DNA from: Candidatus Multivorans sp.
GTDB lineage: Bacteria > Acidobacteriota > Thermoanaerobaculia > Multivoradales > Multivoraceae
NCBI GenBank assembly: GCA_965224025.1
Contig: OZ245033.1
Location: 224,001-288,000 of the forward strand
Direction: 5' to 3'
DNA: 64,000 bases
Shown: positions 15,638 through 45,958 of the stretch, in pieces
How the letters are laid out: every line of letters begins with the position of its first letter
Numbering within the stretch: position 1 is the first letter of the stretch
Position numbers and translations under genes: made by a program
The notes under the pieces: generated by a model
The model's input: the letters and a program-made list of their open reading frames with translations, nothing else
Told to the model about the DNA's origin: nothing
Databases searched by the model: none

Positions 15638-16615
15638 ATGTCCCCGTTGCTCGACAATGCGATCCAGTCAATACGCATCGGCGTGGAGGACTACGAGGCC
15701 CACGACCCGGCCCGGGCACTCTCGGCGATACGCAACCTGCACGCCGGTCTGTTGCTCTTGGCGAAGGAAGTCCTCGTACAGGCGGTTCCGAATGCCGATG
15801 AGGACGACCTGATTGGGGCCGAGTACAAGCCGATGCCGGATGACAACGGCGGTGTGACATATGAGAAGCGTTCCGCACGGACTATCGGCCTCGCCGGGAT
15901 TGGAGAGCGTTTCAAGGACTTCAGGATTCCCGTAGATCGGGCAGCTCTTGAGAAGCTCAGCCAGCTCCGGAACGACGTCGAACACCGATACACCGAGAAG
16001 GCACCTGGCGTTCTGCGACAGACTGTCGCGGGCACGTTTCCGCTAGCGGCGCGGATGTTCCGACGTGTCGGCGTCGACCCCGTTGAGAGGCTGGGAGATG
16101 CTTGGAAGACGATGCTTGACGTACATGAAGTCTACGAGCAGGAGCTACGAACGTGCCGCGAGACGTTCGACCGCGTGGAGTGGCGGCATGAGGTCGTGGG
16201 CAGGCACCCGAGAGAATGTCCCAAGTGCCGCTCGGAGCTACTGGAACAGATTGGACCAGAGAACCGGGAACAGGAGTGTGCAGACTCGGCCTGCCGTTTG
16301 TGCGGGGCAAGGGTGAGCGCGGAAACTCTGGTCGAGAGCGCCATCGCAGCCCACTACTCGGCTGCCGAGTTCCTGGACTACAAGCACGGCGGCGACGGCG
16401 TCGTGTTCGACTGTCCCGAGTGCGGGCTTCACACGTATGTCGTGGACTCAGAACCTGAGGACGGAGGTTCAGAATTCGTCGGATGCATGGCGTGCGACCA
16501 CCGAGTACAGGGCCGATGTGCGCGATGTCAAGAGGACTTGACGCCGGGCAACCTCGGAGCGAACCGCTCTGGCTGTTGCGACTACTGCGAGCACATGCTA
16601 TTCAAGGACGACTGA
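15638..16615 (+). CDS. HEPN-like protein with C-terminal multi-CxxC zinc ribbons
   Basis: Helical N-terminus with RNDVEH (RxxxxH); CPKC, CRLC, CPEC, CMAC, CARC, CDYC. Confidence 0.6.
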   Translation: MSPLLDNAIQSIRIGVEDYEAHDPARALSAIRNLHAGLLLLAKEVLVQAVPNADEDDLIGAEYKPMPDDNGGVTYEKRSARTIGLAGIGERFKDFRIPVDRAALEKLSQLRNDVEHRYTEKAPGVLRQTVAGTFPLAARMFRRVGVDPVERLGDAWKTMLDVHEVYEQELRTCRETFDRVEWRHEVVGRHPRECPKCRSELLEQIGPENREQECADSACRLCGARVSAETLVESAIAAHYSAAEFLDYKHGGDGVVFDCPECGLHTYVVDSEPEDGGSEFVGCMACDHRVQGRCARCQEDLTPGNLGANRSGCCDYCEHMLFKDD

Positions 16616-16890
16616 CCGCGAGCTAGCCGGCTGGCCGGAAGCGGCGTCCGCGTCTCGCTCATGGACTTGCAATCGGCAAGCCCATGAGCGACCGAGGCCC
16701 TCTCAGCGGTAGCGTTGCCTCGCTGCGGCGGCCGTCTCATCCTGGATCCTGGGGAGCGCCGGGACCTCGACTCTTTTCCGCTCCCTGTAGTCCCTGACGG
16801 CCTGACGGGGCCGCACCAGGATCCGCTCCAGTACCGAAAAGGGTCGGCACCCCCCTCGTATAGGGGATTATGTCGAATAGTGCCCAAGCG

Positions 16891-17334
16891 TCACGGGATA
16901 CCGGCGGCGTGGAAGAAGAACCGTTCGAGGTTCTCGCGCACGAAGACATCGAGAGCGATTCGTGTGCCTGCCGATCCGGGCTTGTGGAGGTGACAACGCA
17001 TCTCTACCGCGCTCCATCGAGGCGTGACGATCACATCTGACTGCTCCGCCATCAAGAACCGCAGTTGTAGGCCGGTCGACTGGAACGATACGGCAGCAAC
17101 CGACTCTCCGTCTCGTTTTTGCGCGACTCGCAACGTGAGTTCTTCTTTGACGACCTCGTACCGATACTTCTCGCCCCGGCACTCCAAGAGCTTGTTCATG
17201 TCCGCGGTATCGCGCTCGACAAGCTGCCGAACCTCGTTCTCCAAGAGAGAATCCGAGTTGCAAGCCGCACGTCGAAAGACCCATCGCGGAGCTTCTGTGG
17301 CGTTATCTCGTTGGGGTTCTTCGCTCATTGGCAC
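16891..17334 (-). CDS. hypothetical passenger protein of element A
   Basis: ORF ending next to the left IR and overlapping the upstream small ORF; no motif recognised. Confidence 0.55.
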   Translation of the reverse strand: MPMSEEPQRDNATEAPRWVFRRAACNSDSLLENEVRQLVERDTADMNKLLECRGEKYRYEVVKEELTLRVAQKRDGESVAAVSFQSTGLQLRFLMAEQSDVIVTPRWSAVEMRCHLHKPGSAGTRIALDVFVRENLERFFFHAAGIP

Positions 17335-17639
17335 TGCGGCGGCAGTAGTTCTTCGATCTTCCGTTCGATGTCGGCGGCGGCATGGAGGTTCTTCGTGTAC
17401 TGCTCTATGGCGCGGAGTGCTTCGGCGTAGTCCACGTAGCGCGCATCTCGCATCTCGACCGGATAGCCGCCAGTCATTCGGACGTTCTGATCCGCGTCTC
17501 CGATGGCGCTCAGCATTGACGCGGCGGCTTGTGTCAGAGACCGAGCGATCCCCTTCGCCTTGGTGCGGTAGCAGGCTGCTGAATTCTCGGCTTGCCGCCG
17601 CTTCAGCATGAGGTCGCCGAGGCGTTCACTGTCCGACAT
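17325..17639 (-). CDS. hypothetical helical passenger protein, divergent from the transposase
   Basis: MSDSERLGDLMLKRRQAE...; extended -10 TGgTAAGAT 7 nt before the ATG. Confidence 0.55.
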   Translation of the reverse strand: MSDSERLGDLMLKRRQAENSAACYRTKAKGIARSLTQAAASMLSAIGDADQNVRMTGGYPVEMRDARYVDYAEALRAIEQYTKNLHAAADIERKIEELLPPQCQ

Positions 17640-17656
17640 GGAGGCCATCTTACCAC

Positions 17657-17685
17657 TTGACAGGACGGGCACTATCCTGTAATCT
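17657..17685 (+). promoter_or_regulatory. transposase promoter with internal operator-like palindrome
   Basis: TTGACA-17bp-TAATCT, ATG 7 nt downstream; ACAGGA..TCCTGT inverted repeat across the spacer. Confidence 0.6.
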
Positions 17686-17692
17686 TCTGGGC

Positions 17693-18682
17693 ATGACGAC
17701 GACACTGCAAGACGCACCCGGTAAGCACTACCGGAAGGGCATGAGCCTGATCGACGCGATCCGCCTGTTCCCCGACGATGCGGCGGCGGAAGCGTGGTTC
17801 ACGTGCATCCGCTGGCCCGAAGGTCCATCGTGCCCGCACTGCGGCTCCGAGAACGTCCAAAGTGGCGCGAAGCACAAGACGATGCCGTACCGCTGCCGGA
17901 CGTGCCGCAAGCGCTTCAGCCTCAAGACTGGCACCGTCATGGAGGCGAGCAACCTCGGCTACCAAGTGTGGGCGATGGCGCTGTACCTGCTCCTGACGGG
18001 TCTCAAGGGCGTATCGAGCATGAAGCTGCACCGTGACTTGGACGTGACGCAGAAGACCGCGTGGCACCTCGCTCACCGTCTCCGCAAGGCGTTTGAGGCC
18101 GAAGGGCCGCGAGTCGTCTTCGAGGGGCCGGTAGAGGTCGATGAGACGTACATCGGCGGTCTGCGGAAGAACATGCACGCGAAGAAGCGGAAGACCCTTG
18201 AAGGCCGCGGCACCGTGGGCAAGACCGCCGTGGTCGGCATCAAGGATCGGGAGACCAAGAAGGTCGCGGCGCGGGTCGTCCGCTCGACTGACGGCGGGAC
18301 GCTTCAAGGTTTCGTGCGCGAGCACGTCGAACCCGGCGCGACGGTGTACAGCGACGATACCGGGGCGTACAGCGGTCTGACCGAGTACGAGCGCGGCACC
18401 GTCCGGCACTCGGTCGGCGAGTACGTGGACGGCAAGATCCACACGAACAGCATCGAGTCGCTTTGGTCGATGCTCAAGCGCGCCCACAAGGGCGTCTACC
18501 ACAAGCTCTCGCCGAAGCACCTACAGCGCTATGTCGATGAATTCGCGGGGCGGCAGAACATTCGGGAGTTCGACACCATCGACCAAATGACGGTCGTATC
18601 AGCGTGGCTGGTCGGCAAGCGACTCCGCTACCGCGAGTTGATCGCCGACAACGGTCTGCCGTCCGGCGCACGTTCGGCATGA
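17693..18682 (+). CDS. IS1595-family transposase
   Basis: Zn ribbon CPHC..CRTC, HTH SSMKLHRDLDVTQKTAW, EVDETY, VYSDD, HTNSIESLWS, LQRYVDEF. Confidence 0.96.
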   Translation: MTTTLQDAPGKHYRKGMSLIDAIRLFPDDAAAEAWFTCIRWPEGPSCPHCGSENVQSGAKHKTMPYRCRTCRKRFSLKTGTVMEASNLGYQVWAMALYLLLTGLKGVSSMKLHRDLDVTQKTAWHLAHRLRKAFEAEGPRVVFEGPVEVDETYIGGLRKNMHAKKRKTLEGRGTVGKTAVVGIKDRETKKVAARVVRSTDGGTLQGFVREHVEPGATVYSDDTGAYSGLTEYERGTVRHSVGEYVDGKIHTNSIESLWSMLKRAHKGVYHKLSPKHLQRYVDEFAGRQNIREFDTIDQMTVVSAWLVGKRLRYRELIADNGLPSGARSA

Positions 18683-20105
18683 CGGCGGACGGCCAGCGCG
18701 CCAGCGCGCCAGCGCGCCAGCGCGCCAGCGCGCCAGCGCGCCAGCGCCGGAATTGTCCACTGCAACTTCCGAGCCCAACTGGAAGAACCGGACTTTGTTC
18801 CACCGGGACAACCTAGAGGTCTTGCGCGGCATGAACAGTGAGACGGTGGACCTGATCGCCACAGACCCGCCGTTCAACAAAGGGCGGGACTTCCACGCGA
18901 CGCCCGACAGCCTCGCGGCAGGCGCGTCCTTCAAGGACCGCTGGACGTGGGAGAACGACGTCCAACAAGAGTGGGTGGACAAGATCGCCGATGACTGGCC
19001 TGCGATCAAGGAACTGGTCGAGTCAGCCGGGGCGTGCTACGGCGAGGACATGGCGGCATTCCTGGTCTGGATGGGGATTCGGTTACTCGAAATGCGGCGG
19101 GTACTCAAGCCGACCGGGGCGATCTACTTGCACTGCGACCACACGGCGGGCGCGTATCTCAAGATGCTCATGGACGCGATCTTCGGGCGCAGGCAACTCA
19201 AGAACGAGATCGTGTGGCACTTCCGCACATCGTCAGGAGCACCCAAGAAGCACTTCATCAAGAACACGAACACGATCTTCTTCTACGTGAAGTCTAGGAA
19301 CTCCGTGTTCAATCTCCAGAGAGAACCGTGGCCGGAGTCCACACTGAAGAAGTGGCAGCGCGACTCCAAGGGGAGGGTCTACCGAACCAACAACGGCAAG
19401 CGGTACTACATCGACCCTAAGGGCAAGCGGATGGACAACGTGTGGGAGATCACGCTGTCTTCACGATCTCGGGAGCGTGTCGGGTACCCGACGCAGAAAC
19501 CGATAGCGCTCTACGAGCGCATCGTCCAGGCATCGTCCAACGAAGGCGACATCGTTCTTGACCCATTCTGCGGTTGCGCGACTACATGCGTGGTGGCGGA
19601 GAAACTCGGCCGACAGTGGGTTGGGATCGACATTTGGGACAAGGCGCACGAGACGGTTCTGGACCGCCTACGGAAAGAAGAACTGTCGGTAGGGGGTGAC
19701 CAGGGCGACCGGCTCTTCACCGTTGGTGACGTGGCCTACCGGAGAGACGTTCCGGTGCGAACTGACGATGCCCAGGTCGCCGCTCCCAAGATGCGTCGCC
19801 GTAAGTACTTCTTCGAGGACCCGCCAGACGGTTACACGAACCGCGAGCGGAAGCAGTTGCTCGTCGAGACCAACGCCCGCGACGGACTCGTGTACTGTGA
19901 TGGCTGTGACCGCGGATTCGACTCGCCCGAGTACCTGCAACTCGACCACAACACGCCGCGATCAAGTGGCGGCAGCAACAACATCTCGAACCGTCGCCTG
20001 CTCTGCGGCCCGTGCAATCGCCGCAAGTCGAACACACTGACGCTCATCGGACTGCGGAGGAAGAACAAGAAGGACGGATTCATGGCGAATCAGACCGTAA
20101 CCTGA
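18679..20105 (+). CDS. DNA N6/N4-methyltransferase fused to a C-terminal HNH endonuclease; out of frame at a 5' octamer repeat (putative phase OFF)
   Basis: DLIATDPPF, YPTQKP, VLDPFCG; HNH with CDGC..LDHNTPRSSGGSNNISN..LCGPCNRRKS. The ATG at 18679 is frameshifted by (GCCAGCGC)7; the in-frame body starts at 18753. Confidence 0.9.
18692..18747 (+). repeat. perfect simple sequence repeat (GCCAGCGC)7
   Basis: Seven exact 8-nt units counted directly. Confidence 0.97.
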
Positions 20106-20119
20106 TAAGGATGGAGTCC

Positions 20120-21436
20120 TCAATCGCAATGCTCGGCGACCAGATCGTCCCACGCGGCGCACTTGCTCCGGTCATCGTCCGAGCAGTGCCCAAGGCCCTT
20201 CGGGCAGAGGTTCGCTTGGGCGCGGTACAGATCGCACTGAGCCTCCGTAGGCTTGTTGGCCTCGTGAATCGTCTGAAGGCCCTCGACGGAGACAGCGATG
20301 CTCGCCGCCGCGCTCTTGCAACTGGCGTCTTGAAGGTCTTGCAGGTCGCTCGTTGCGCCCCTTACGGCGGCGCAATCAGTACCGGCCAAGAACGACCCGA
20401 CATCGACCCGATCAGCTTCCAACGTGCCTTTGAGGTTCGGGACGAGTGGCCGCCCGTTCTCGCGCTTCTGATGGATCTCCGCTGCGGTCGCGTCCAGTAC
20501 GTGCAGCCTCGAAGACCCGTCGGGGTGCGTGAGACTCGCGGCCCACGCGGCACCGGGATTCCTAGCGATCATCTTCTCCCAGAACGCCGAGACGCACCCC
20601 ACGTCGTAGCCCGCCCGCGCGGCCAAGTAGACCCCCGCATAGTCGGCCTCGACCTCGAACTTCGGCGCGTGGTAGAGCGCCCCGAGGGCGCTGTAGTCCT
20701 GGTAGACGCCAGTCGCGACCGTCACGACGGCTCCCAGCAGAGCGCCGAGGATCTGGTTCTGCTTCACGGCCGCGAGATGCCCGTAGGCATTGTGCGCGAG
20801 TTCGTGGCCGAGCAGGTACGCGAGTTCGTCGTCGGTCTTGATGAAGTCCATCGCGGCGGTCGTGACCGCCACCGACTTCCCGTCCGCGAATGCGTTCACG
20901 GTCGCGTGTTCGAGCAGGCCAGCCGGGTAGTTGCAGTGCCGAGTGCTCGCCATGTAGAGCGTGGCTTCGCCTCCGTCTCGAAGAACGGTCAGCCTGTAGT
21001 GAAGCGACTGCGGGCTACGCTTCATCCGTCGCTCGGCTCGTCGTCCAGTGCCGAGATCCTTCCCGTCGCGGGCCACGATCCGGTCGCCCGCTCGCAGGCC
21101 CGCCTTTTCGGCCGGGGATCCTGCAGCTACGTGGGTCACGGTCACGTACTCGCTCGGGCCGTACTTCGCCGTCCATGCACTGCGATAGGGCTGCGCGGCT
21201 GTCGCGAGGTCGGCGAACCAGAAACCCGACATCAACCGCGTCTTCGTGCATCGGCCCGAGTTGGCGCTTGTGAGTCGGAACCAGACGCTCTGGAGCCTCT
21301 CGAACTGCTCCATGTGCTTCTTCGCCGCTTCCGCGACCGTGGCGTTGTAGGCGGTCGGGTTGACGGTTGGTGCCGACGTGGTGGTCGATACGCAGCCGAG
21401 CGCGGTCAACGCCAGTGCGGCGGCGAGTCTCTTCAT
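20120..21436 (-). CDS. lipoprotein M48-family metallopeptidase with PDZ domain (passenger of element A)
   Basis: Lipobox LTALGC; PDZ AGSPAEKAGLRAGDRI; NAFA..ELAYLLGHELAH; EVEADY; THP. Confidence 0.9.
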   Translation of the reverse strand: MKRLAAALALTALGCVSTTTSAPTVNPTAYNATVAEAAKKHMEQFERLQSVWFRLTSANSGRCTKTRLMSGFWFADLATAAQPYRSAWTAKYGPSEYVTVTHVAAGSPAEKAGLRAGDRIVARDGKDLGTGRRAERRMKRSPQSLHYRLTVLRDGGEATLYMASTRHCNYPAGLLEHATVNAFADGKSVAVTTAAMDFIKTDDELAYLLGHELAHNAYGHLAAVKQNQILGALLGAVVTVATGVYQDYSALGALYHAPKFEVEADYAGVYLAARAGYDVGCVSAFWEKMIARNPGAAWAASLTHPDGSSRLHVLDATAAEIHQKRENGRPLVPNLKGTLEADRVDVGSFLAGTDCAAVRGATSDLQDLQDASCKSAAASIAVSVEGLQTIHEANKPTEAQCDLYRAQANLCPKGLGHCSDDDRSKCAAWDDLVAEHCD

Positions 21437-21662
21437 GGGGGCCTCCTCCAGTTGAGGCACCAGCCCCTGGATTGGCGCCGGGCCGTTGCAACCGCCATGC
21501 AGCGAGCACGGACAAGGCTCCCGCCTATTCGCCCGGCTTCGGGAGCTACCCGCAGCCTCAGAACAGGCTGTTGTATTCAGCGGATAACCCGACTCAGGTC
21601 CCGCTGCTGACGATTGCAAGCCGCTACTGTAGCAGCACCAGTTCTAGGAGAACGGAGGCAAC

Positions 21663-21851
21663 GTGAGCAAGAAGAAGCGGAAGATCGAACTGGTCAAGGC
21701 GGACTACCAGCCGTCACGGGCCGAACAGCGCGACGAAGTAGCGCCGCCAGCGGACTTGATGGAGTTGCCGCTGATGGAACGGCTTGCCGAAGGTGCGCGG
21801 CGACTGCTTCAGCCCGTTGAGATCACCTACACCAAGCGCCCGCGCCGGTGA
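21663..21851 (+). CDS. small basic protein at the right end of element A
   Basis: GGAGG RBS, GTG start, 62 aa, stop 3 bp before the right IR. Confidence 0.65.
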   Translation: MSKKKRKIELVKADYQPSRAEQRDEVAPPADLMELPLMERLAEGARRLLQPVEITYTKRPRR

Positions 21852-21881
21852 GCGGCTTGGGCACTATTCGACATAATCCCC

Positions 21882-22918
21882 TTTCGGATGGTGCGGGCGA
21901 CGGCCTTCATGGGTTCGACCTTGGAGCGGTTCACGTTGGTGCACCACTGATGGAGCATTCGCAGCACGACGTTGATCTGCTTGCGGTTGAGAATTTCGCG
22001 GAGTTGCTCCCGATAGAGCCAGGCGCGTGCGGTGCGTCGGCTGGCGACCCTCTTGACGAAGCGGTCGAGGTCGGCCCGTTGGGCCGGCGTCAGGGAGTCG
22101 CGGTTCTTGAGCAGCGTCCAGCGCAGGCCCTTCAGCGACGGATCGAGGCGCTGTTCGAGGCGCCGGGTCTCGTCCACCGCCTTCGAGGCCAGGGCCATGA
22201 CGTGGAACTTGTCGAGGGTCACCTCGGCGTTGGGGAGATTCTCGGCGACGCCCTTGAGGAAGGCGGCCGACATGTCGATGGACGCCCGGCTGATCGCGGC
22301 GGGATCGCCGCCGCGCCTTTGCAGATCGTCGGCGAACTCCTCGATCGTGCCGGACTTGCGTCCCTCGGCGAGGAACACCACGCGCCGGCGCTCGCTGTCG
22401 GCGACCGCGGTCACGTAGTCGTGCCCCTTGGCGCGGGAAGTCTCGTCAATGGCCACGTGGCGCAGTTCGGAGAGGTCGTCCCGGTCGACCGCCAGCTCGA
22501 CGTAGCGCTTGCAGATCGCGTGCACCCGATGCCACGACACCCCGGTCAACCGGGCCACCGCAGCGAAGGTCATGTCTCGGCACATGGCCAGAATCAAGGC
22601 TTCGAACAGCAGCGTGAAGCCGGACAATCTGCCCGACCAGGGCGGAGTCACCAACGCCACCCGCTGGTCGGGGAGTCGCACACGGGGCACTCGCGCCTCG
22701 AGCAGGCACTCGTGCTGGAAGAAGTTGAGGTGCCGATAGCGCTTGATCTGCGTGTCGTGCACCGGATGAGAACCGCCGTCCCCCTCGTGGGCGAATCGGC
22801 TGCCCTTCCTGAAGTCGATCCGTATCGTCAACCGACGCTCCCTCTCACAGAAGTCCACGCCGTCAACGAACCACGGCGCCGACACGCCCAGCGCTCTCGC
22901 GAACAATTCCCTCTGCAT
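21882..22918 (-). pseudogene. ISL3 transposase, C-terminally truncated
   Basis: RHLNFFQHEC, FTLLFEA, AIDETS..GHDYVT, SIDMS, DKFHV; reading stops at ARTIRK where the IS1595 IR begins. Confidence 0.92.
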
Positions 22919-23166
22919 CTCTCGTCCTCCTTCAGTCGGAACAGGAGAGACGAGTCTTGCTCATTCCGATCGCCCGCGACTACAGCCGCCACCCGAAATC
23001 GCCGCGAACGCCCTCCCCACCGGACAGCTTGCGCCCTCGCCGCTACCGGTCTTCCGCAGATTCCACAGCCCGACGGCGGCGGCTACGGCGGCGGAGGCCG
23101 CTATCCCAAGACCCCCTCAGCATCTGCACTCGCCCGCGCCCTACCCACTCGCAACTCGAAAGAGGC
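21882..23166 (-). mobile_element. ISL3-family IS, 3'-truncated by element A
   Basis: Probable left end GCCTCTTTCGAG at 23166 next to AT-rich ATAACAAT; transposase cut at the IS1595 IR. Confidence 0.8.
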
Positions 23167-23348
23167 ATAACAATTCGTACACACAGCCGGGCACGAGCCA
23201 CCCGATCGACCCCAACGCCAGCCCGGACGATCCACTCGGAAACAACTTCCAATATTTTGACCTTGGCGCGCGCAAATTCTACAACTCCTTCTCATCGTTT
23301 GGAGGAGAGGGATTCTCAGAGCTTCCGCGGAAACAAGGTAACGCCTCG

Positions 23349-41478: not shown

Positions 41479-41599
41479 CTACCCCTCAATCCCCCCAATG
41501 CACATGTACTTGATCTCGAGGTAGTCGTCGAGTCCGTACTTCGACCCTTCGCGGCCGTGGCCGGATTCCTTCATGCCGCCGAAGGGGGCCATTTCGTTG
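41479..41599 (-). pseudogene. gabD: succinate-semialdehyde dehydrogenase, 3' fragment
   Basis: [39 protein letters not shown], continuing the gene across element B. Confidence 0.92.
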
Positions 41600-41631
41600 G
41601 GGGATTATATCCGTAGGTTGACAGAAACCGA

Positions 41632-41766
41632 TCACGCCTCGGCCTTCTTGGTGGCCTTGACCGGCTTCGCCCGGTCCTTCATCAGCAGCCAGTGCGCCAC
41701 CTGCTTCGGAGTCGCGCCGTTGTAGTTGGCCTTCAATCCCTTGCGGCGAGGCTTCTTGATCTTCAT
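41632..41766 (-). CDS. small basic protein (44 aa) at the downstream end of element B
   Basis: MKIKKPRRKGLKANYNGATPKQVAHWLLMKDRAKPVKATKKAEA; below the ORF-track cutoff; stop 8 bp from the IR. Confidence 0.55.
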   Translation of the reverse strand: MKIKKPRRKGLKANYNGATPKQVAHWLLMKDRAKPVKATKKAEA

Positions 41767-41809
41767 AACAGCGCCGCTCACCTAGGCCCGCCGTAGATGG
41801 AATGCTCCC

Positions 41810-43396
41810 TCAGAACAGTTCCTGCTGCGCCATCGGCTTGCCGCTGTACGGATCGTTCATCGTCGGCAAGCGTGGCAGTCTCCCGTCGAAGTACTCGCTG
41901 ATCGGCCATAGCTGCATTCTCCTGTAGGGCTGACCGGACACGCTGATCGTGCCAGCCTCTGCCGCTTCCGCCCGCGCTGCACGCGAGCCGACTGGTTCCA
42001 GTGTGACGAAGCAGCCGAGAGCCGCTTCGTCGCGGTCTGTGACATGGCGGAAGTCCCGCAACGCTCCGAGATGGAATCCACCGCCCTTGATCTGCGCCAG
42101 CGCGAGACGGGAATCGTAGTCGTCCGGCTGAGCGGCGATCACGGCGCGACCGTCCACGCCGCCGTCCGCAACCTGCTTCATGTTCGGCGCGAAACCGGGG
42201 AGCCGCGTCACCGCCCACGATTCAAAGCTGAACGGCTGCTCGGTTGCCAGCTTGCGCGCCGATGCGAGATCGACCGGGATCCCCTTCGTCGGGATCGTCC
42301 GGTTCTTCAGCCGCTTCTCACGGATCAGGTCGATAGCGAATGACGAAATGTCGATCCCGGCCCACTGTCGGCCGAGACGCTGCGCCGCTTCAATGGTCGT
42401 ACCGCAACCGCAGAACGGATCGAGAATCAGGTCGTCAGGGTTACTGCTCGCTTCGATGATCCGCTCCAGCAACGCGCGGGGCTTCTGGGTCGGGTAACCC
42501 ATCCGTTCCTTCGCCTGGGCGCCGATCGGCCCTATGTCCGTCCATAGGTCCTGCAACGGCCGGCCCTTGGCCTCGTCCAAATAGCGCTTGTAGGCCGGGA
42601 CGCGGCCCGGCGCTGTTTGTACAACCCGTCCTTCGTCGATCATCCGCTGCATCCGCTCGCGGGAGTAGGCCCAATAGCGCGTTACGCCCAGTACCTCGTA
42701 CTGCGGGTTGCCCTTCGCTGCACCGCCGCGCCCAGTCATATCGCTGAGTCGATAGCGCCGTCCAGTGTCTTCTTCGACATAGCGGTAGAAACCGTCGACG
42801 TATTGGTCATCGTATGGCGTGTACAGCGGATTCCAAGCCCAACCGTCGCCCCTCGAGTAGTAGAGGACGCGATCCAGTACACGTCCAAATTGTCGTCTTC
42901 CCTGCGCGCCGTCGTTGTGGCTGCTGGTTCGCTTCCATCCGATTTCGGATCGGAAATTCGGCACACCGAAGATCGCGTCCATGACGATTTTGAGATAGTG
43001 GCTCGCGGTCGGGTCACAGTGCAAGTAGATCGAACCTGTTGGCTTGAGGAGCCGGTGCATGTGCTCCAAGCGCTCCGCCATGTAGGTCAGGTAGGCGAGC
43101 ATCCCGGACGGGCCGATGGCGTGCCGTAGGCCCACTATCGCGTCGTGGGCGCGTCGTGCGGGCGCACCCTCGTAGGCCGCGTAGCGGTCCGCCGCGGCTT
43201 CGTCCCACGCCCATGTGTCGCTGAACGCCCGGTACTGCGCGTCAGCGCCGCCGCGAGCCGAGTAGAGGATGTTGTAGTCGGCCTTCGAGTTGAATGGCGG
43301 ATCGAGGTAAATCAGGTCTACGGACTGATCGTCCCATCGCTGCATCCAGTCGAGGCAGTCACCGTAGTACAGCGTGCCCGCGTCCGGTGGGTTCAT
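41810..43396 (-). CDS. DNA N6/N4-methyltransferase fused to a C-terminal Mrr-like PD-(D/E)XK domain
   Basis: DLIYLDPPFNS, YPTQKP, ILDPFCGCGTT; FESWAV..DGGVDG..AQIKGG. Confidence 0.92.
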   Translation of the reverse strand: MNPPDAGTLYYGDCLDWMQRWDDQSVDLIYLDPPFNSKADYNILYSARGGADAQYRAFSDTWAWDEAAADRYAAYEGAPARRAHDAIVGLRHAIGPSGMLAYLTYMAERLEHMHRLLKPTGSIYLHCDPTASHYLKIVMDAIFGVPNFRSEIGWKRTSSHNDGAQGRRQFGRVLDRVLYYSRGDGWAWNPLYTPYDDQYVDGFYRYVEEDTGRRYRLSDMTGRGGAAKGNPQYEVLGVTRYWAYSRERMQRMIDEGRVVQTAPGRVPAYKRYLDEAKGRPLQDLWTDIGPIGAQAKERMGYPTQKPRALLERIIEASSNPDDLILDPFCGCGTTIEAAQRLGRQWAGIDISSFAIDLIREKRLKNRTIPTKGIPVDLASARKLATEQPFSFESWAVTRLPGFAPNMKQVADGGVDGRAVIAAQPDDYDSRLALAQIKGGGFHLGALRDFRHVTDRDEAALGCFVTLEPVGSRAARAEAAEAGTISVSGQPYRRMQLWPISEYFDGRLPRLPTMNDPYSGKPMAQQELF

Positions 43397-44379
43397 GCCG
43401 AGCGAGCGCCGGACGGCAGGCCGTTGTCGGCGATCAGGTCACGGTACTGGAGCCGCTTGCCCGCCAGCCCCTCGGTGACGGACGCCATTTGCGCCAGCGT
43501 GTCGAGATCGCGGAAGTTGTGACGGCCCGCGAACTGGTTGACGTAGCGCTGTAGATGCTTCGGTGAGAGCTTGTGGTACACGCCCTTGTGGGCGCGCTTG
43601 AGCATCGACCAGAAGCTCTCGATCGAGTTCGTGTGAACCTTGCCCGCAACGTACTCGCCGACCGAGTGCTTGACGGTGCCGCGCTCGTACTCGGTCAAAC
43701 CGCTGTACGCCCCCGTATCGTCCGTGTAGACCGTTGCGCCGGGTTCGACGTGCTCACGGACGAACGCTTGCAGGGTCTCGCCGTCGGTCGAACGGACGAC
43801 ACGCGCCGCCACCATGCCGGTCTCGCGGTCCTTGACGCCCACCACCGCTGTCTTGCCGACAGAGCCACGGCCTTCGAGGGTCTTGCGCTTCTTCGCGTGC
43901 ATATTCTTCCGCAGACCGCCGAAGTACGCCTCATCGGCTTCTGCCGGTCCCTCGAAGCGCACGGTCGGCCCCGAGTCGCTGAACTCGCGGATGCGCTGGA
44001 GCATGAACCACGCGGTCTTCTGAGTGACGCCCAGGTCACGGTGGATCTTCATCGACGACACGCCCTTGAGGCTCGTTGTGTCGAGGTAGATCGCGTACAG
44101 CCACTTGAGCAGAGGCAGCTTCGACCGCGCCATCACGGTGCCGGTCTTCACCGAGAAGTACCGCTTGCAGTCGCGGCAGCGGTACGGCATCTTCGCGTGG
44201 CTGCACTCGTGGTTGTTGTCGGTGCCGCAGTGCGGGCAGTAGCGCTCGCCGTCCGGCCAGACGATCGCCTCGAACCACTGCCGCGCCGCTTCCTCATCGG
44301 GGAACATCCGCTGCAAGTCGAACAGCGTGATGCCCTTCCGGTGAGCCTTGCCGGGTGCCTTGAGTTCTGTGTCGTTCAT
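43393..44379 (-). CDS. IS1595-family transposase
   Basis: CPHC..CRDC, SSMKIHRDLGVTQKTAW, EADEAY, VYTDD, HTNSIESFWS. Confidence 0.96.
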   Translation of the reverse strand: MNDTELKAPGKAHRKGITLFDLQRMFPDEEAARQWFEAIVWPDGERYCPHCGTDNNHECSHAKMPYRCRDCKRYFSVKTGTVMARSKLPLLKWLYAIYLDTTSLKGVSSMKIHRDLGVTQKTAWFMLQRIREFSDSGPTVRFEGPAEADEAYFGGLRKNMHAKKRKTLEGRGSVGKTAVVGVKDRETGMVAARVVRSTDGETLQAFVREHVEPGATVYTDDTGAYSGLTEYERGTVKHSVGEYVAGKVHTNSIESFWSMLKRAHKGVYHKLSPKHLQRYVNQFAGRHNFRDLDTLAQMASVTEGLAGKRLQYRDLIADNGLPSGARSA

Positions 44380-44456
44380 CGCTTCTCCCTCCGTCAACCG
44401 TGAGGTATACCCTACCGGACGGAGAGCCAGTTTGTCAACCTAGAGATATAATCCCC

Positions 44457-45846
44457 TTTCGTTGGAAATGATGCCTTCGTTGATGCCGACGATGCCGTAT
44501 TCGAGCGCTTCGCTGACGCGCCAGATGCGGCCCACGTCGCGGGCGTAGAAATAGCTGGCTAGGCCGAACTCGGTGTCGTTGGCCATGGCGATCGCTTCTT
44601 CTTCAGTGCTGAACTTCATCAGCGGCGCGATGGGTCCGAAGATTTCTTCGCGGAACACCCGCATGTCGTCCGTCACGCCGGTGAGGATGGTGGGTTGGAC
44701 GAAGCACCCGCCCAGATCCGACGGAACGCCGCCCATCTCGACCGTGGCGCCCCGGTCCACCGCGTCGGTGACGCGACTGGTCACGTTCGCCACTGCCTCG
44801 GTGCTGATCAGCGGGCCCACGGTGACGCCATCCTCGGTGCCGTCGCCCATCTTGATCCCGGCCACGGCCGCGGCGAGTCTTTCGGCGAACTCGTCGTAGA
44901 CGCCTTCCTGGACCAGGATGCGGTTGGCGCACACGCAGGTCTGGCCCGCGTTGCGGAACTTGCAGATCATGGCGCCGGTCACCGCCGCATCCAGGTCGGC
45001 GTCGTCGAACACGATGAAGGGCGCGTTGCCGCCCAGTTCCATGGACATCCGCTTCATCGTGCCCGCGCATTGAGCCATGAGCAGCTTTCCCACCGCGGTG
45101 GAGCCCGTGAAGGTGAGCTTGCGGACCGTGGGGTTGGACGTCAGTTCCTCGCCGATCTCCTCGGTCTGGCCGCAGAGGATGTTGATCACTCCGGGCGGGA
45201 TGCCCGCGCGCGTCGCCAGCTCGGCCAGGGCATTGGCCGACAGTGGCGTCTCGTTGGCCGGCTTGCAGACCACCGTACAGCCGGCCGCGAGGGCCGGTGC
45301 GATCTTGCGCGCGAGCATGGCGTTGGGGAAGTTCCAGGGTGTGATGCAGGCCACCACTCCGACCGGCTGCTTGATGCAGACGACGCGCTTGTCGTTGGAA
45401 GGCTGGGGGATCGTGTCGCCGTACACCCGCTTGGCCTCTTCCGCGAACCACTCGATGTAGCTGGCGCCGTAGGCGATCTCCCCGCGGGCTTCAAAGAGGG
45501 GCTTGCCCTGTTCCGCCGTCATCATCTGAGCCAGGTCTTCCTGGCTCTCCATCATCAGGTCGAACCAGCGCCGCAGCAGCGCGGCGCGCTCCTTGGCCGT
45601 GGTGTGCCGCCACTGCTCGAAGGCCCTTCCGGCCGCCTCGATGGCGCGCCGGGTTTCGGCCGCGCCGCAGCAGGCGACCTCAGCCAGGACCTCGCCCGTG
45701 GCGGGGTTCTCGACGGCGAAGGTCTCGCCGGAATCGGCGTCGACCCACTGGCCGTCGATGCAGGCCTGGGCTCGAAGTAGGCCGGGGTCGGCCAGGTCGA
45801 TGCGGTCGGCCGGGACTCGGGTGGCTACGGAGGCGGCAATGCTCAT
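44457..45846 (-). pseudogene. gabD: succinate-semialdehyde dehydrogenase, 5' part interrupted by the IS
   Basis: ITPWNFP, FTGST, MELGGNAP, FRNAGQTCVC, EEIFGP; ends at GIISNE. Confidence 0.94.
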
Positions 45847-45958
45847 GAACGTCACTCCCTGCGGGTCGTTGGCGTAGCCGGGTCAATTGGCTCTGTCGAT
45901 CAATCCTAAGATGTATCAGCCCCCCGGACGGGGTCGCAAGGAGACCCGCGTCCGCGGC

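Follow-up and report, generated by a model that had tools for sequence, protein, structure and literature searches.

We analysed a 64,000-nucleotide (nt) stretch of the genome of Candidatus Multivorans sp. (contig OZ245033.1, positions 224,001 to 288,000), hereafter the window, in which an IS1595-type transposon carries a passenger gene for a DNA methyltransferase fused to an HNH nuclease. Between the transposase stop codon and the conserved N-terminus of this enzyme lies a tandem array of 8-nt units. We consider it probable that this array is a hypermutable frameshift switch in the 5' coding end of the passenger gene. A preliminary description of the same DNA had proposed a mobile phase-variation switch. 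The hypermutability of the tract, the conservation of the overlapping start and the occurrence of both frame classes speak for this proposal, whereas the allele series that it predicted was not seen for this element.

The junction between the two genes is organised as follows (lengths of proteins in amino acids, aa); all coordinates of the preliminary description were confirmed in the sequence.

17693..18682, forward strand: IS1595-family transposase, 329 aa from the ATG at 17693, with a TGA stop at 18680-18682 (the list of open reading frames, ORFs, opens the frame at TTG 17657).
18679..18681, forward strand: ATG overlapping the transposase stop (ATGA), proposed coupled start of the methyltransferase-HNH gene.
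18692..18747, forward strand: seven perfect GCCAGCGC units forming the hypermutable tract (Tandem Repeats Finder: period 8, 7.0 copies, 100% matches, score 112).
18748..18773, forward strand: linker CGGAATTGTCCACTGCAACTTCCGAG, which holds TTG 18753 (a rival start) and a GGAATT motif.
18753..20105, forward strand: predicted N6/N4 DNA methyltransferase of the beta class with a C-terminal HNH nuclease, 450 aa from the TTG; frame intact in 3/3 genomic copies.
18814..18816, forward strand: TAG ending the out-of-frame reading from ATG 18679 (45 codons with n = 7 units, 37 codons with n = 4).

The ATG at 18679-18681 is followed by 10 bases (18682-18691), the seven units (18692-18747) and 5 bases that lead to TTG 18753. 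The ATG belongs to frame 1 and the methyltransferase to frame 0; they are 74 nt apart, a distance of 18+8n, and are thus in frame only when n is 0, 3, 6 or 9. The earlier assignment of n = 7 to the OFF state agrees with the ORF list, in which the frame of the ATG ends at 18816. The repeat had also been said to be free of stops; this is correct for the forward strand, since the GCCAGCGC unit contains no T and none of the frames of that strand can hold a stop codon. The tract sits between ATG 18679 and the conserved PNWKNRT encoded from 18774, i.e., within the putative 5' coding region. A sister IS1595 element of the window has, as had been claimed, the same ATGA overlap, with its methyltransferase in frame from the overlapping ATG and no repeat. 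The overlapping ATG is also the in-frame start in four type-3 copies of this genome. When the whole 5.14-Mb genome was scanned for perfect tandem arrays (unit of 4-12 nt, at least 3 copies), the two 7-unit copies of the tract ranked first by length, and the only non-triplet arrays of at least 27 nt were the three copies of the tract and one CGCCGCCG x4. The tract is far beyond chance.

The unit numbers differ between the three genomic copies of the element (7, 4, and 7). Over the 4,963 bases outside the tract, copies 1 and 2 do not have a single mismatch. Their sole difference is 7 vs 4 units, which makes the tract the fastest-changing site of the element. Similar contrasts were found in other genomes (described below), namely in G037 and G049 of the same genus (8 vs 2 and 11 vs 12 units, without a mismatch over 1,285 and 1,305 compared bases, respectively) and in an Alphaproteobacteria metagenome-assembled genome, or MAG (~8 vs ~2 units of an 11-mer, with 2 mismatches over an element of ~2.4 kb). 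The tract is hypermutable between otherwise identical copies. The variable repeat number anticipated in the preliminary description was therefore observed between copies and between related genomes, whereas the 6/7/8/9 series was not: only n = 4 and n = 7 occur here, both in one out-of-frame class. Copy 3 (G000:C1:1968051-1973030, locus L003; G000 is the present genome) is identical to the window copy in the DNA for 310 nt past the tract and in the ~135 aa of the N-terminus of the protein. Its HNH end has one differing aligned residue. The central region is different, for an overall identity of 75%. This region of the methyltransferase is presumed to be responsible for target recognition, and the copies may thus carry different specificities. 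From the PNW anchor the frames of the three copies are open over 443, 443, and 430 aa.

The preliminary description had suggested looking for repeats at other IS1595 junctions. We searched the junction DNA in 57 genomes of the family, reading the matches individually, and found different non-triplet units in genomes of the same genus. The organisation is recurrent: a start codon overlaps the transposase stop, the conserved anchor CCGAACTGG encodes the PNW of PNWKNRT, and a lineage-specific tract lies between the two. The copies are listed by genome or contig, with the overlap and the tract.

G000 (this genome): ATGA; GCCAGCGC x7, x4, and x7.
G049: GTGA; GCCAGCGC x11 and x12.
G037: GTGA; CGACCGGG x8, x8, and x2.
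G051: GTGA; CGACCGGG x1, in two identical copies.
Metagenome contig L099: GTGA; CGACCGGG x7.
G045: ATGA; heptamer GCGACCG x20.
G048: ATGA; heptamer GACGCGG x9.
G017: element end, then ATGA; the G048 heptamer in another register (CGGGACG), at least 16 units, with an assembly gap inside.
G041: GTGA; two imperfect units.
G050: TTGA; two units.
G029: GTGA; without tract, the GTG being directly in frame (VSEPNW).

A pattern scan of metagenomes retrieved 2 contigs, one of them cut inside the tract; the CGACCGGG unit is also carried by metagenome contig L100. A scan of contigs for methyltransferase-HNH genes added 59 distant MAG loci (31-53% identity). Nine of these 59 have a perfect array of at least 3 copies, which is placed at the gene start in L040 and L041 only; the poly-C of L044 was found by reading and not by the array scan. 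A 2.5-kb IS1595 element is present four times in the Alphaproteobacteria MAG, twice with ~8 units of the 11-mer and twice with ~2, and is arranged in the order inverted repeat, ATG, 11-mer tract, methyltransferase, convergent transposase, and second inverted repeat. From the upstream stop to the conserved N-terminus, its methyltransferase frame contains neither ATG nor GTG nor TTG, which leaves the ATG before the tract as the only candidate start. In a Parvibaculaceae MAG, a poly-C(20) directly follows the ATG of a related methyltransferase. The six unit lengths met (1, 7, 7, 8, 8, and 11) include no multiple of three. In tract-free relatives, the overlapping codon is itself the in-frame start (GTGA in G029, L037, and L042, besides the sister element and the type-3 copies). 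Tract-free methyltransferases start on the stop of an upstream ORF in a Rhodospirillaceae MAG (GTGA) and a Halioglobus MAG (ATG overlapping TAA), and the methyltransferase ATG lies 2 nt past the upstream stop in a Gammaproteobacteria MAG; the upstream ORFs of these three MAGs were judged by eye to be IS1595 transposases. A fourth IS1595-methyltransferase type of the present genome (G000:C1:889444 region, minus strand) has the same 5' flank and linker (ATGACGGCGGACGGCGCGGAATTGTCC...) but lacks an array, and several frameshifts disrupt its methyltransferase.

Near-identical genes exist in both frame classes: the three copies of this genome are out of frame, and P0124, P0123 (public proteins), and G048 are in frame. 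In G048, the ATGA and nine heptamers (read as MTRDAGRG TRDAGRG TRDAGRG...) open into an intact methyltransferase-HNH of 520 aa, which is publicly annotated from the ATG that precedes the tract. The two other in-frame forms belong to the 90%-identity cluster that holds the window protein. P0124, full length with 463 aa and N-terminus MNGTRDAGRGRTPPAEPNW, is identical to the window protein at 403/446 residues (90%). Its short N-terminal extension MNGTRDAGRGR includes one TRDAGRG, the motif encoded by the G048 heptamer (P0124 was compared as a protein). P0123 (195/202 identical residues, 97%) starts with MSANSQ and ~three PGDRATGR repeats, followed by PELSTATSGPNW; it reads the linker of the window as an internal PELSTATS, with the TTG position as an internal Leu, and its gene is split downstream. 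A protein search with residues 1-40 of the G048 in-frame protein gave no match at E <= 0.001 among 273 candidates because this region is too short and of low complexity. Among eleven intact genes, the ratio of nonsynonymous to synonymous substitution rates (dN/dS) ranges from 0.11 to 0.40 (pairs with >50% identity and unsaturated dS), which argues against dead genes. The pair G051 and L099, both out of frame, has a dS of 0.36 and a dN/dS of 0.16. These ratios indicate purifying selection on the enzyme.

The transposase matches DDE_Tnp_IS1595 (PF12762, 3e-40) and, by its N-terminal zinc ribbon, Zn_ribbon_IS1595 (PF12760, 7.5e-08) in Pfam, as well as the NCBIfam family transpos_IS1595 (NF033547, 3.5e-53, above the 75-bit cut-off). 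The methyltransferase matches N6_N4_Mtase (PF01555, 1.8e-47, aa 32-301, 162.6 bits for a cut-off of 26.7). The same polypeptide matches HNH (PF01844, 2e-09, aa 382-427, 37.9 bits for a cut-off of 21.4). PADLOC calls it MTase_II (Type II methyltransferase, 8.8e-57), and the closest solved structures are the beta-class MboIIA (1g60, 1.7e-23) and also RsrI. When the motifs are read by eye, motif IV (DPPF) precedes motif I, which is the order of the beta class, and the HNH domain shows two CxxC pairs and the DH...N...N residues. The enzyme is thus predicted to be a beta-class, Type II-like N6/N4 methyltransferase and HNH nuclease in a single chain. Such methyltransferase-HNH fusions form a very large family (7,993 of the 8,000 scored public candidates at E <= 1e-30), which includes proteins named from a sponge-associated Cenarchaeum MAG; the cluster-mates of the window protein bear names from Holophagales MAGs.

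These data are consistent with the following mechanism. Translation of the passenger gene would begin at the ATG overlapping the transposase stop and would be coupled to translation of the transposase. The ribosome would then read the repeat as a low-complexity N-terminal extension, reaching the enzyme only when the number of units is a multiple of three. Slipped-strand mispairing would add or remove 8-nt units and thereby shift the frame. The copies of this genome (n = 7, 4, and 7) all stand one unit above an in-frame number. Only the short peptide of 45 or 37 codons would be produced from the ATG, which implies that the enzyme would be off or nearly off. That ATG 18679 is the start actually used, and that switching takes place within the population, are what we infer from this organisation; the off state may also make a methylase-nuclease less costly to carry as the element spreads. 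RNA folding of 18650-18800 (-74.7 kcal/mol, z = -2.3) shows a tract that pairs with itself and a predicted stem CCGUCCGG/CGGACGG (window 18658-18693) that encloses the AUGA junction. This model is suggestive of a stem that might tie the methyltransferase start to transposase translation. A resembling pairing is visible by eye in the sister element. A scan for promoters and terminators gave no more sites than in shuffled sequences, and none at the junction.

Several observations weigh against a switch of this kind. All three copies of this genome are out of frame, and in the same frame. The frame could be read in 22 junction copies, of which 17 are out of frame and 5 in frame (G048, the tract-free G029, G049 locus L090, and two copies of G050), and three of these five are broken, by a frameshift (L090) or by a TAG at codon 71 (the two G050 copies). 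When only tracts of at least 4 units in front of an intact gene are counted, a single copy out of 11 is in frame (G048). Among the copies examined, we found no in-frame allele that combines the GCCAGCGC unit with an intact gene: the sole in-frame GCCAGCGC allele (G049, n = 12) has a 1-nt frameshift further in. Public annotation follows the same trend. We viewed 27 of the 29 listed members of the cluster (P0016 and P0139 were left out); in 20 of the 27 the annotation begins at an internal Met and in 3 still deeper, and 4 carry the complete N-terminus. The window gene itself is annotated from Met27 (P0121, corresponding to 18831-20102). The TTG at 18753 is in frame and would give MSTATSEPNW, which is similar to the short N-termini normally found in relatives, such as MSTPNWENRT of P0008. 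G051, with a single unit and no canonical in-frame start, keeps an intact frame of 480 aa in two copies, and either has another route of expression or represents a locked-off allele.

The distribution of unit numbers is also unlike that of a simple random walk. Within each lineage, alleles are multiples of three units apart: 4/7 in G000, 2/8 in G037, ~2/~8 in G057 (the Alphaproteobacteria MAG), and 1/7 between G051 and L099. Differences of 3 or 6 units leave each lineage with one shared out-of-frame class. The chance of such a pattern is ~1 in 81, or 1 in 16 when majority alleles that are in frame are left out, and the only exception is the dead gene of G049 (11/12). Tracts may move back and forth between an in-frame number and a single favoured neighbour. 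Finally, the unit numbers come from contigs, and Logan contigs break inside the tract (the pieces of X1 end at 18715 and restart at 18718).

Part of this evidence would fit an enzyme that is translated from TTG 18753 (or from ATT where the linker is 1 nt shorter) regardless of the number of units. The tract would then belong to a leader or a short upstream ORF beginning at the coupled ATG, and would at most tune expression through spacing or start occlusion. We regard this explanation as unlikely, although several points favour it. From TTG 18753, which is in frame, the protein would have an N-terminus of the usual length, the full-length proteins among 32 homologues having mostly M, 1-4 residues and PNW. 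The motif (C/A)GGAATT(G/C), or AGAATT, stands directly 3' of the tract in every genus lineage examined (window 18748-18759; L012-L022, L099), and a GGAATT-type motif follows even the poly-C tract of the distant Parvibaculaceae MAG (L044). It is kept at the nucleotide level despite a 1-nt indel, which places an ATT or TTG inside GGAATT(G/C) in the methyltransferase frame in each of these genus lineages. The single unit of G051 and the two imperfect units of G041 precede frames of 480 and 491 aa, respectively, with the overlapping GTG out of frame, and a single out-of-frame class is common to lineage-mates. However, TTG 18753 is not preceded by a Shine-Dalgarno motif (a GGA lies 1 nt upstream), in contrast with the sister transposase, which has GGAGGGAG 6 nt before its ATG, and ATT is a very weak start codon. 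The Alphaproteobacteria MAG lacks canonical in-frame starts after its tract and, by eye, has no ATT or CTG there either. P0123 and the G048 protein read through tract and linker from an upstream ATG. Lastly, a leader would not need units whose length is never a multiple of three.

One could also suppose that the methylase-nuclease is costly and its frameshifts favoured, so that the tract is a neutral microsatellite at the most mutable 5' site, with no adaptive reversible switching. The predominance of out-of-frame alleles (the 17 copies above) is expected in this case, as are the lesions elsewhere in the genes: a 1-nt insertion in the DPPF motif of both G049:C4 copies, the TAG of both G050 copies, the multiply frameshifted type-4 copy of this genome, and the split gene behind P0123. 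The tract also continues to vary (11 vs 12) in the already broken gene of G049. Such a scenario of gene loss is nonetheless quite unlikely, given the low dN/dS of the intact genes, also in pairs of which both members are out of frame. Out-of-frame tracts precede uninterrupted frames of 416-492 aa in G000 (three copies), G037 (the copy that was followed to its stop), G045, G041, and L099, as well as in four 419-aa copies of the Alphaproteobacteria MAG. Random inactivation should leave lesions dispersed along the gene, not perfect arrays at one and the same 5' position in distinct lineages and in another phylum. None of the arrays has an interruption, which hints at continuing turnover or maintenance.

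Some long-read assemblies are prone to errors in repeat length, and no piece spans the tract among the Logan contigs from X1, X3, X5, and X2 (17 runs listed), but an error of assembly or polishing is exceedingly improbable as the source of the tract or its length, in view of the clean integer unit numbers of three copies in one genome, the same architecture in at least eight other assemblies and two metagenome contigs, and the repeat-coded N-termini of public proteins. Two further ideas were rejected. A fusion of transposase and methyltransferase by readthrough or programmed frameshifting would have to accommodate a stop that is in the methyltransferase frame in G037, G045, and G041 and offset by 1 in G000 and G051; no slippery site was seen at the junctions examined, and no single fusion mechanism fits. 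The out-of-frame reading does not end at a fixed position either, its stops lying 40 to 374 nt past the anchor depending on the lineage.

The putative frameshift switch is part of an element that is larger than the transposase and methyltransferase of the preliminary description. The actual unit is an IS1595-type transposon of 5,019 base pairs (bp; 16864-21882) with three further passenger ORFs. It is bounded by perfect 27-bp terminal inverted repeats, exact at both ends of the 3/3 genomic copies, and homology between copies spans ~16856 to 21881. The transposase is intact (329 aa) in all three. The remaining features of the element, and the sister element, are as follows (GC, guanine plus cytosine).

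16864..16890, forward strand: left terminal inverted repeat GGGGATTATGTCGAATAGTGCCCAAGC, an exact 27-mer found at both ends of all three copies; homology between copies begins here.
16891..17334, reverse strand: passenger ORF of 147 aa without NCBIfam or PADLOC match; GC by codon position 0.66/0.43/0.67, coding-like.
17325..17717, reverse strand: passenger ORF of 130 aa with no family match above threshold (Pfam, NCBIfam, PADLOC); GC by codon position 0.63/0.47/0.70, coding-like.
20120..21619, reverse strand: M48 metallopeptidase with a PDZ domain (Peptidase_M48 1.5e-15, PDZ_6 6.7e-09); GC at third codon positions 0.79-0.82.
21856..21882, reverse strand: right terminal inverted repeat, 27 bp, exact.
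41600..44456, reverse strand: sister IS1595 element, with the transposase at 43393..44397 and the methyltransferase at 41810..43396; no repeat tract.

The start of the M48 peptidase is likely internal, at MKRLAAALALTALGC, which was judged by eye to be lipoprotein-like. The methyltransferase of the sister element has a weak Mrr_cat-like tail, and the four genomic copies of this element have an identical junction. In the window, it splits an aldehyde dehydrogenase gene (44440-45855; Aldedh 4.6e-164, profile positions 1-430 of 461) and is flanked by an 8-bp target duplication, tttcgttg (41592-41599 and 44457-44464). With this clean duplication, it looks like a recent insertion.

The genome (5.14 Mb, 67.6% GC, 3 contigs) holds three copies of the 5-kb element, whose 8-bp flanks are unmatched within a copy and matched across copies. 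Copy 1 (window 16856-16863 and 21883-21890) has ctcgtata on the left and tttcggat on the right, copy 2 has ttcgtata and ctcgttta, and copy 3 has tttcggat and ttcgtata. Flanks that are exchanged in this way are best read as the result of recombination between copies, and they suggest an inversion of the ~1.7-Mb interval between copies 1 and 3. They also suggest a TTCG-like target preference common to the 5-kb element and to the tttcgttg of the sister. A 1.29-kb repeat adjoins the right inverted repeat (window 21881-23170) and recurs in the genome in at least 12 more full-length, near-identical copies; it is presumably another insertion sequence. Just beyond the left end, an ORF of 325 aa (window 15638-16612) matches the PADLOC candidate defence family PDC-S64 (3.2e-36). 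A megablast search of the 5-kb element against a plasmid collection gave no match, and Rfam gave none at E <= 0.1 on 16800-21950.

Phase-variable DNA methyltransferases are well known. Type III mod and Type I hsd methyltransferases vary in phase by simple-sequence repeats and form phasevarions, as described in parts of PMC5909438 and PMC7383803. Like in the phasevarions of those descriptions, the methyltransferase studied here has a repeat in the region where the frame matters, with a unit not divisible by three, a variable length and both frame classes. Unlike the mod and hsdM subunits covered there, it is predicted to be a beta-class, Type II-like N6/N4 enzyme fused to HNH. Its units are long and GC-rich (7, 8, and 11 nt), its gene is a passenger of a multicopy IS1595-type transposon, and its start overlaps the transposase stop. 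The phasevarions described are those of host-adapted pathogens, whereas the present case, read from genome sequence alone, comes from a high-GC environmental or symbiont-type genome. Cj0031 of Campylobacter jejuni is a chromosomal, phase-variable Type IIG restriction-modification enzyme (parts of PMC4889913). As far as it is described there, it resembles the present enzyme in combining methyltransferase and nuclease functions in one polypeptide, with a repeat tract in the coding region. It differs from the methyltransferase-then-HNH order, the octamer unit, the location on a transposon and the three copies found here. The tract of Cj0031 is reportedly a homopolymer.

IS1595-family elements with passenger genes were reportedly treated by Siguier, Gagnevin and Chandler in 2009 (Res Microbiol 160:232). 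Like the members of this family, the present element has a DDE transposase with an N-terminal zinc ribbon, short terminal inverted repeats and extra genes; the 8-bp target duplication of the family is seen at the sister element. Full-text literature searches (Siguier 2009 excluded) returned no methyltransferase-nuclease passenger or repeat tract for the IS1595 family. The statement of the preliminary description that no IS1595-borne case was known stands in these searches, which also excluded the supplementary tables of PMC2853133. In passages of that paper, Furuta, Abe and Kobayashi (2010) describe restriction-modification genes in units bounded by inverted repeats, with 8-bp target duplications, and read them as mobile. 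Like these units, the present element has restriction-modification-type genes between inverted repeats; unlike them, as far as those passages go, it has a repeat switch and a putative translational coupling to the transposase. Repeat-switched methyltransferases and IS1595 passengers were thus already known, and what seems to be new is their combination on an IS1595-type transposon.

More tentatively, these elements may represent a class of 'mobile phasevarion' modules: IS1595 transposons of high-GC environmental or symbiont-type bacteria in which a hypermutable non-triplet repeat after the start gates a methyltransferase-nuclease with interchangeable target-recognition regions. The design would have more than one origin: one genus uses units of 7 and 8 nt, the Alphaproteobacteria MAG with its convergent gene order uses an 11-mer, and a third lineage uses poly-C. 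Its alleles would alternate between an in-frame unit number and a single neighbouring out-of-frame one, and the differences of multiples of three among lineage-mates would follow from this. Such modules could spread silently, with restriction or epigenetic change turned on in a minority of cells. They may be sought by looking, in the ~150 nt that follow the stop of an IS1595 transposase or the end of an element, for a non-triplet tandem repeat in front of a methyltransferase with a PNWxNRT N-terminus.

Methyltransferases switched on and off by repeats have been known mainly from chromosomal Type I, III, and IIG systems of host-adapted pathogens. In the present case, this logic is met on a multicopy transposon in genomes of a quite different ecology, with long GC-rich units, the methyltransferase being joined to a nuclease and its gene linked to the stop codon of the transposase. 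If this reading is correct, automated annotation systematically mis-calls such genes, as in the 20 of 27 public relatives whose annotation begins at an internal Met. Several copies that differ in specificity and switch independently could coexist in a single cell, as the divergent central region of copy 3 would allow, and transposons could move stochastic epigenetic or restriction modules between genomes.

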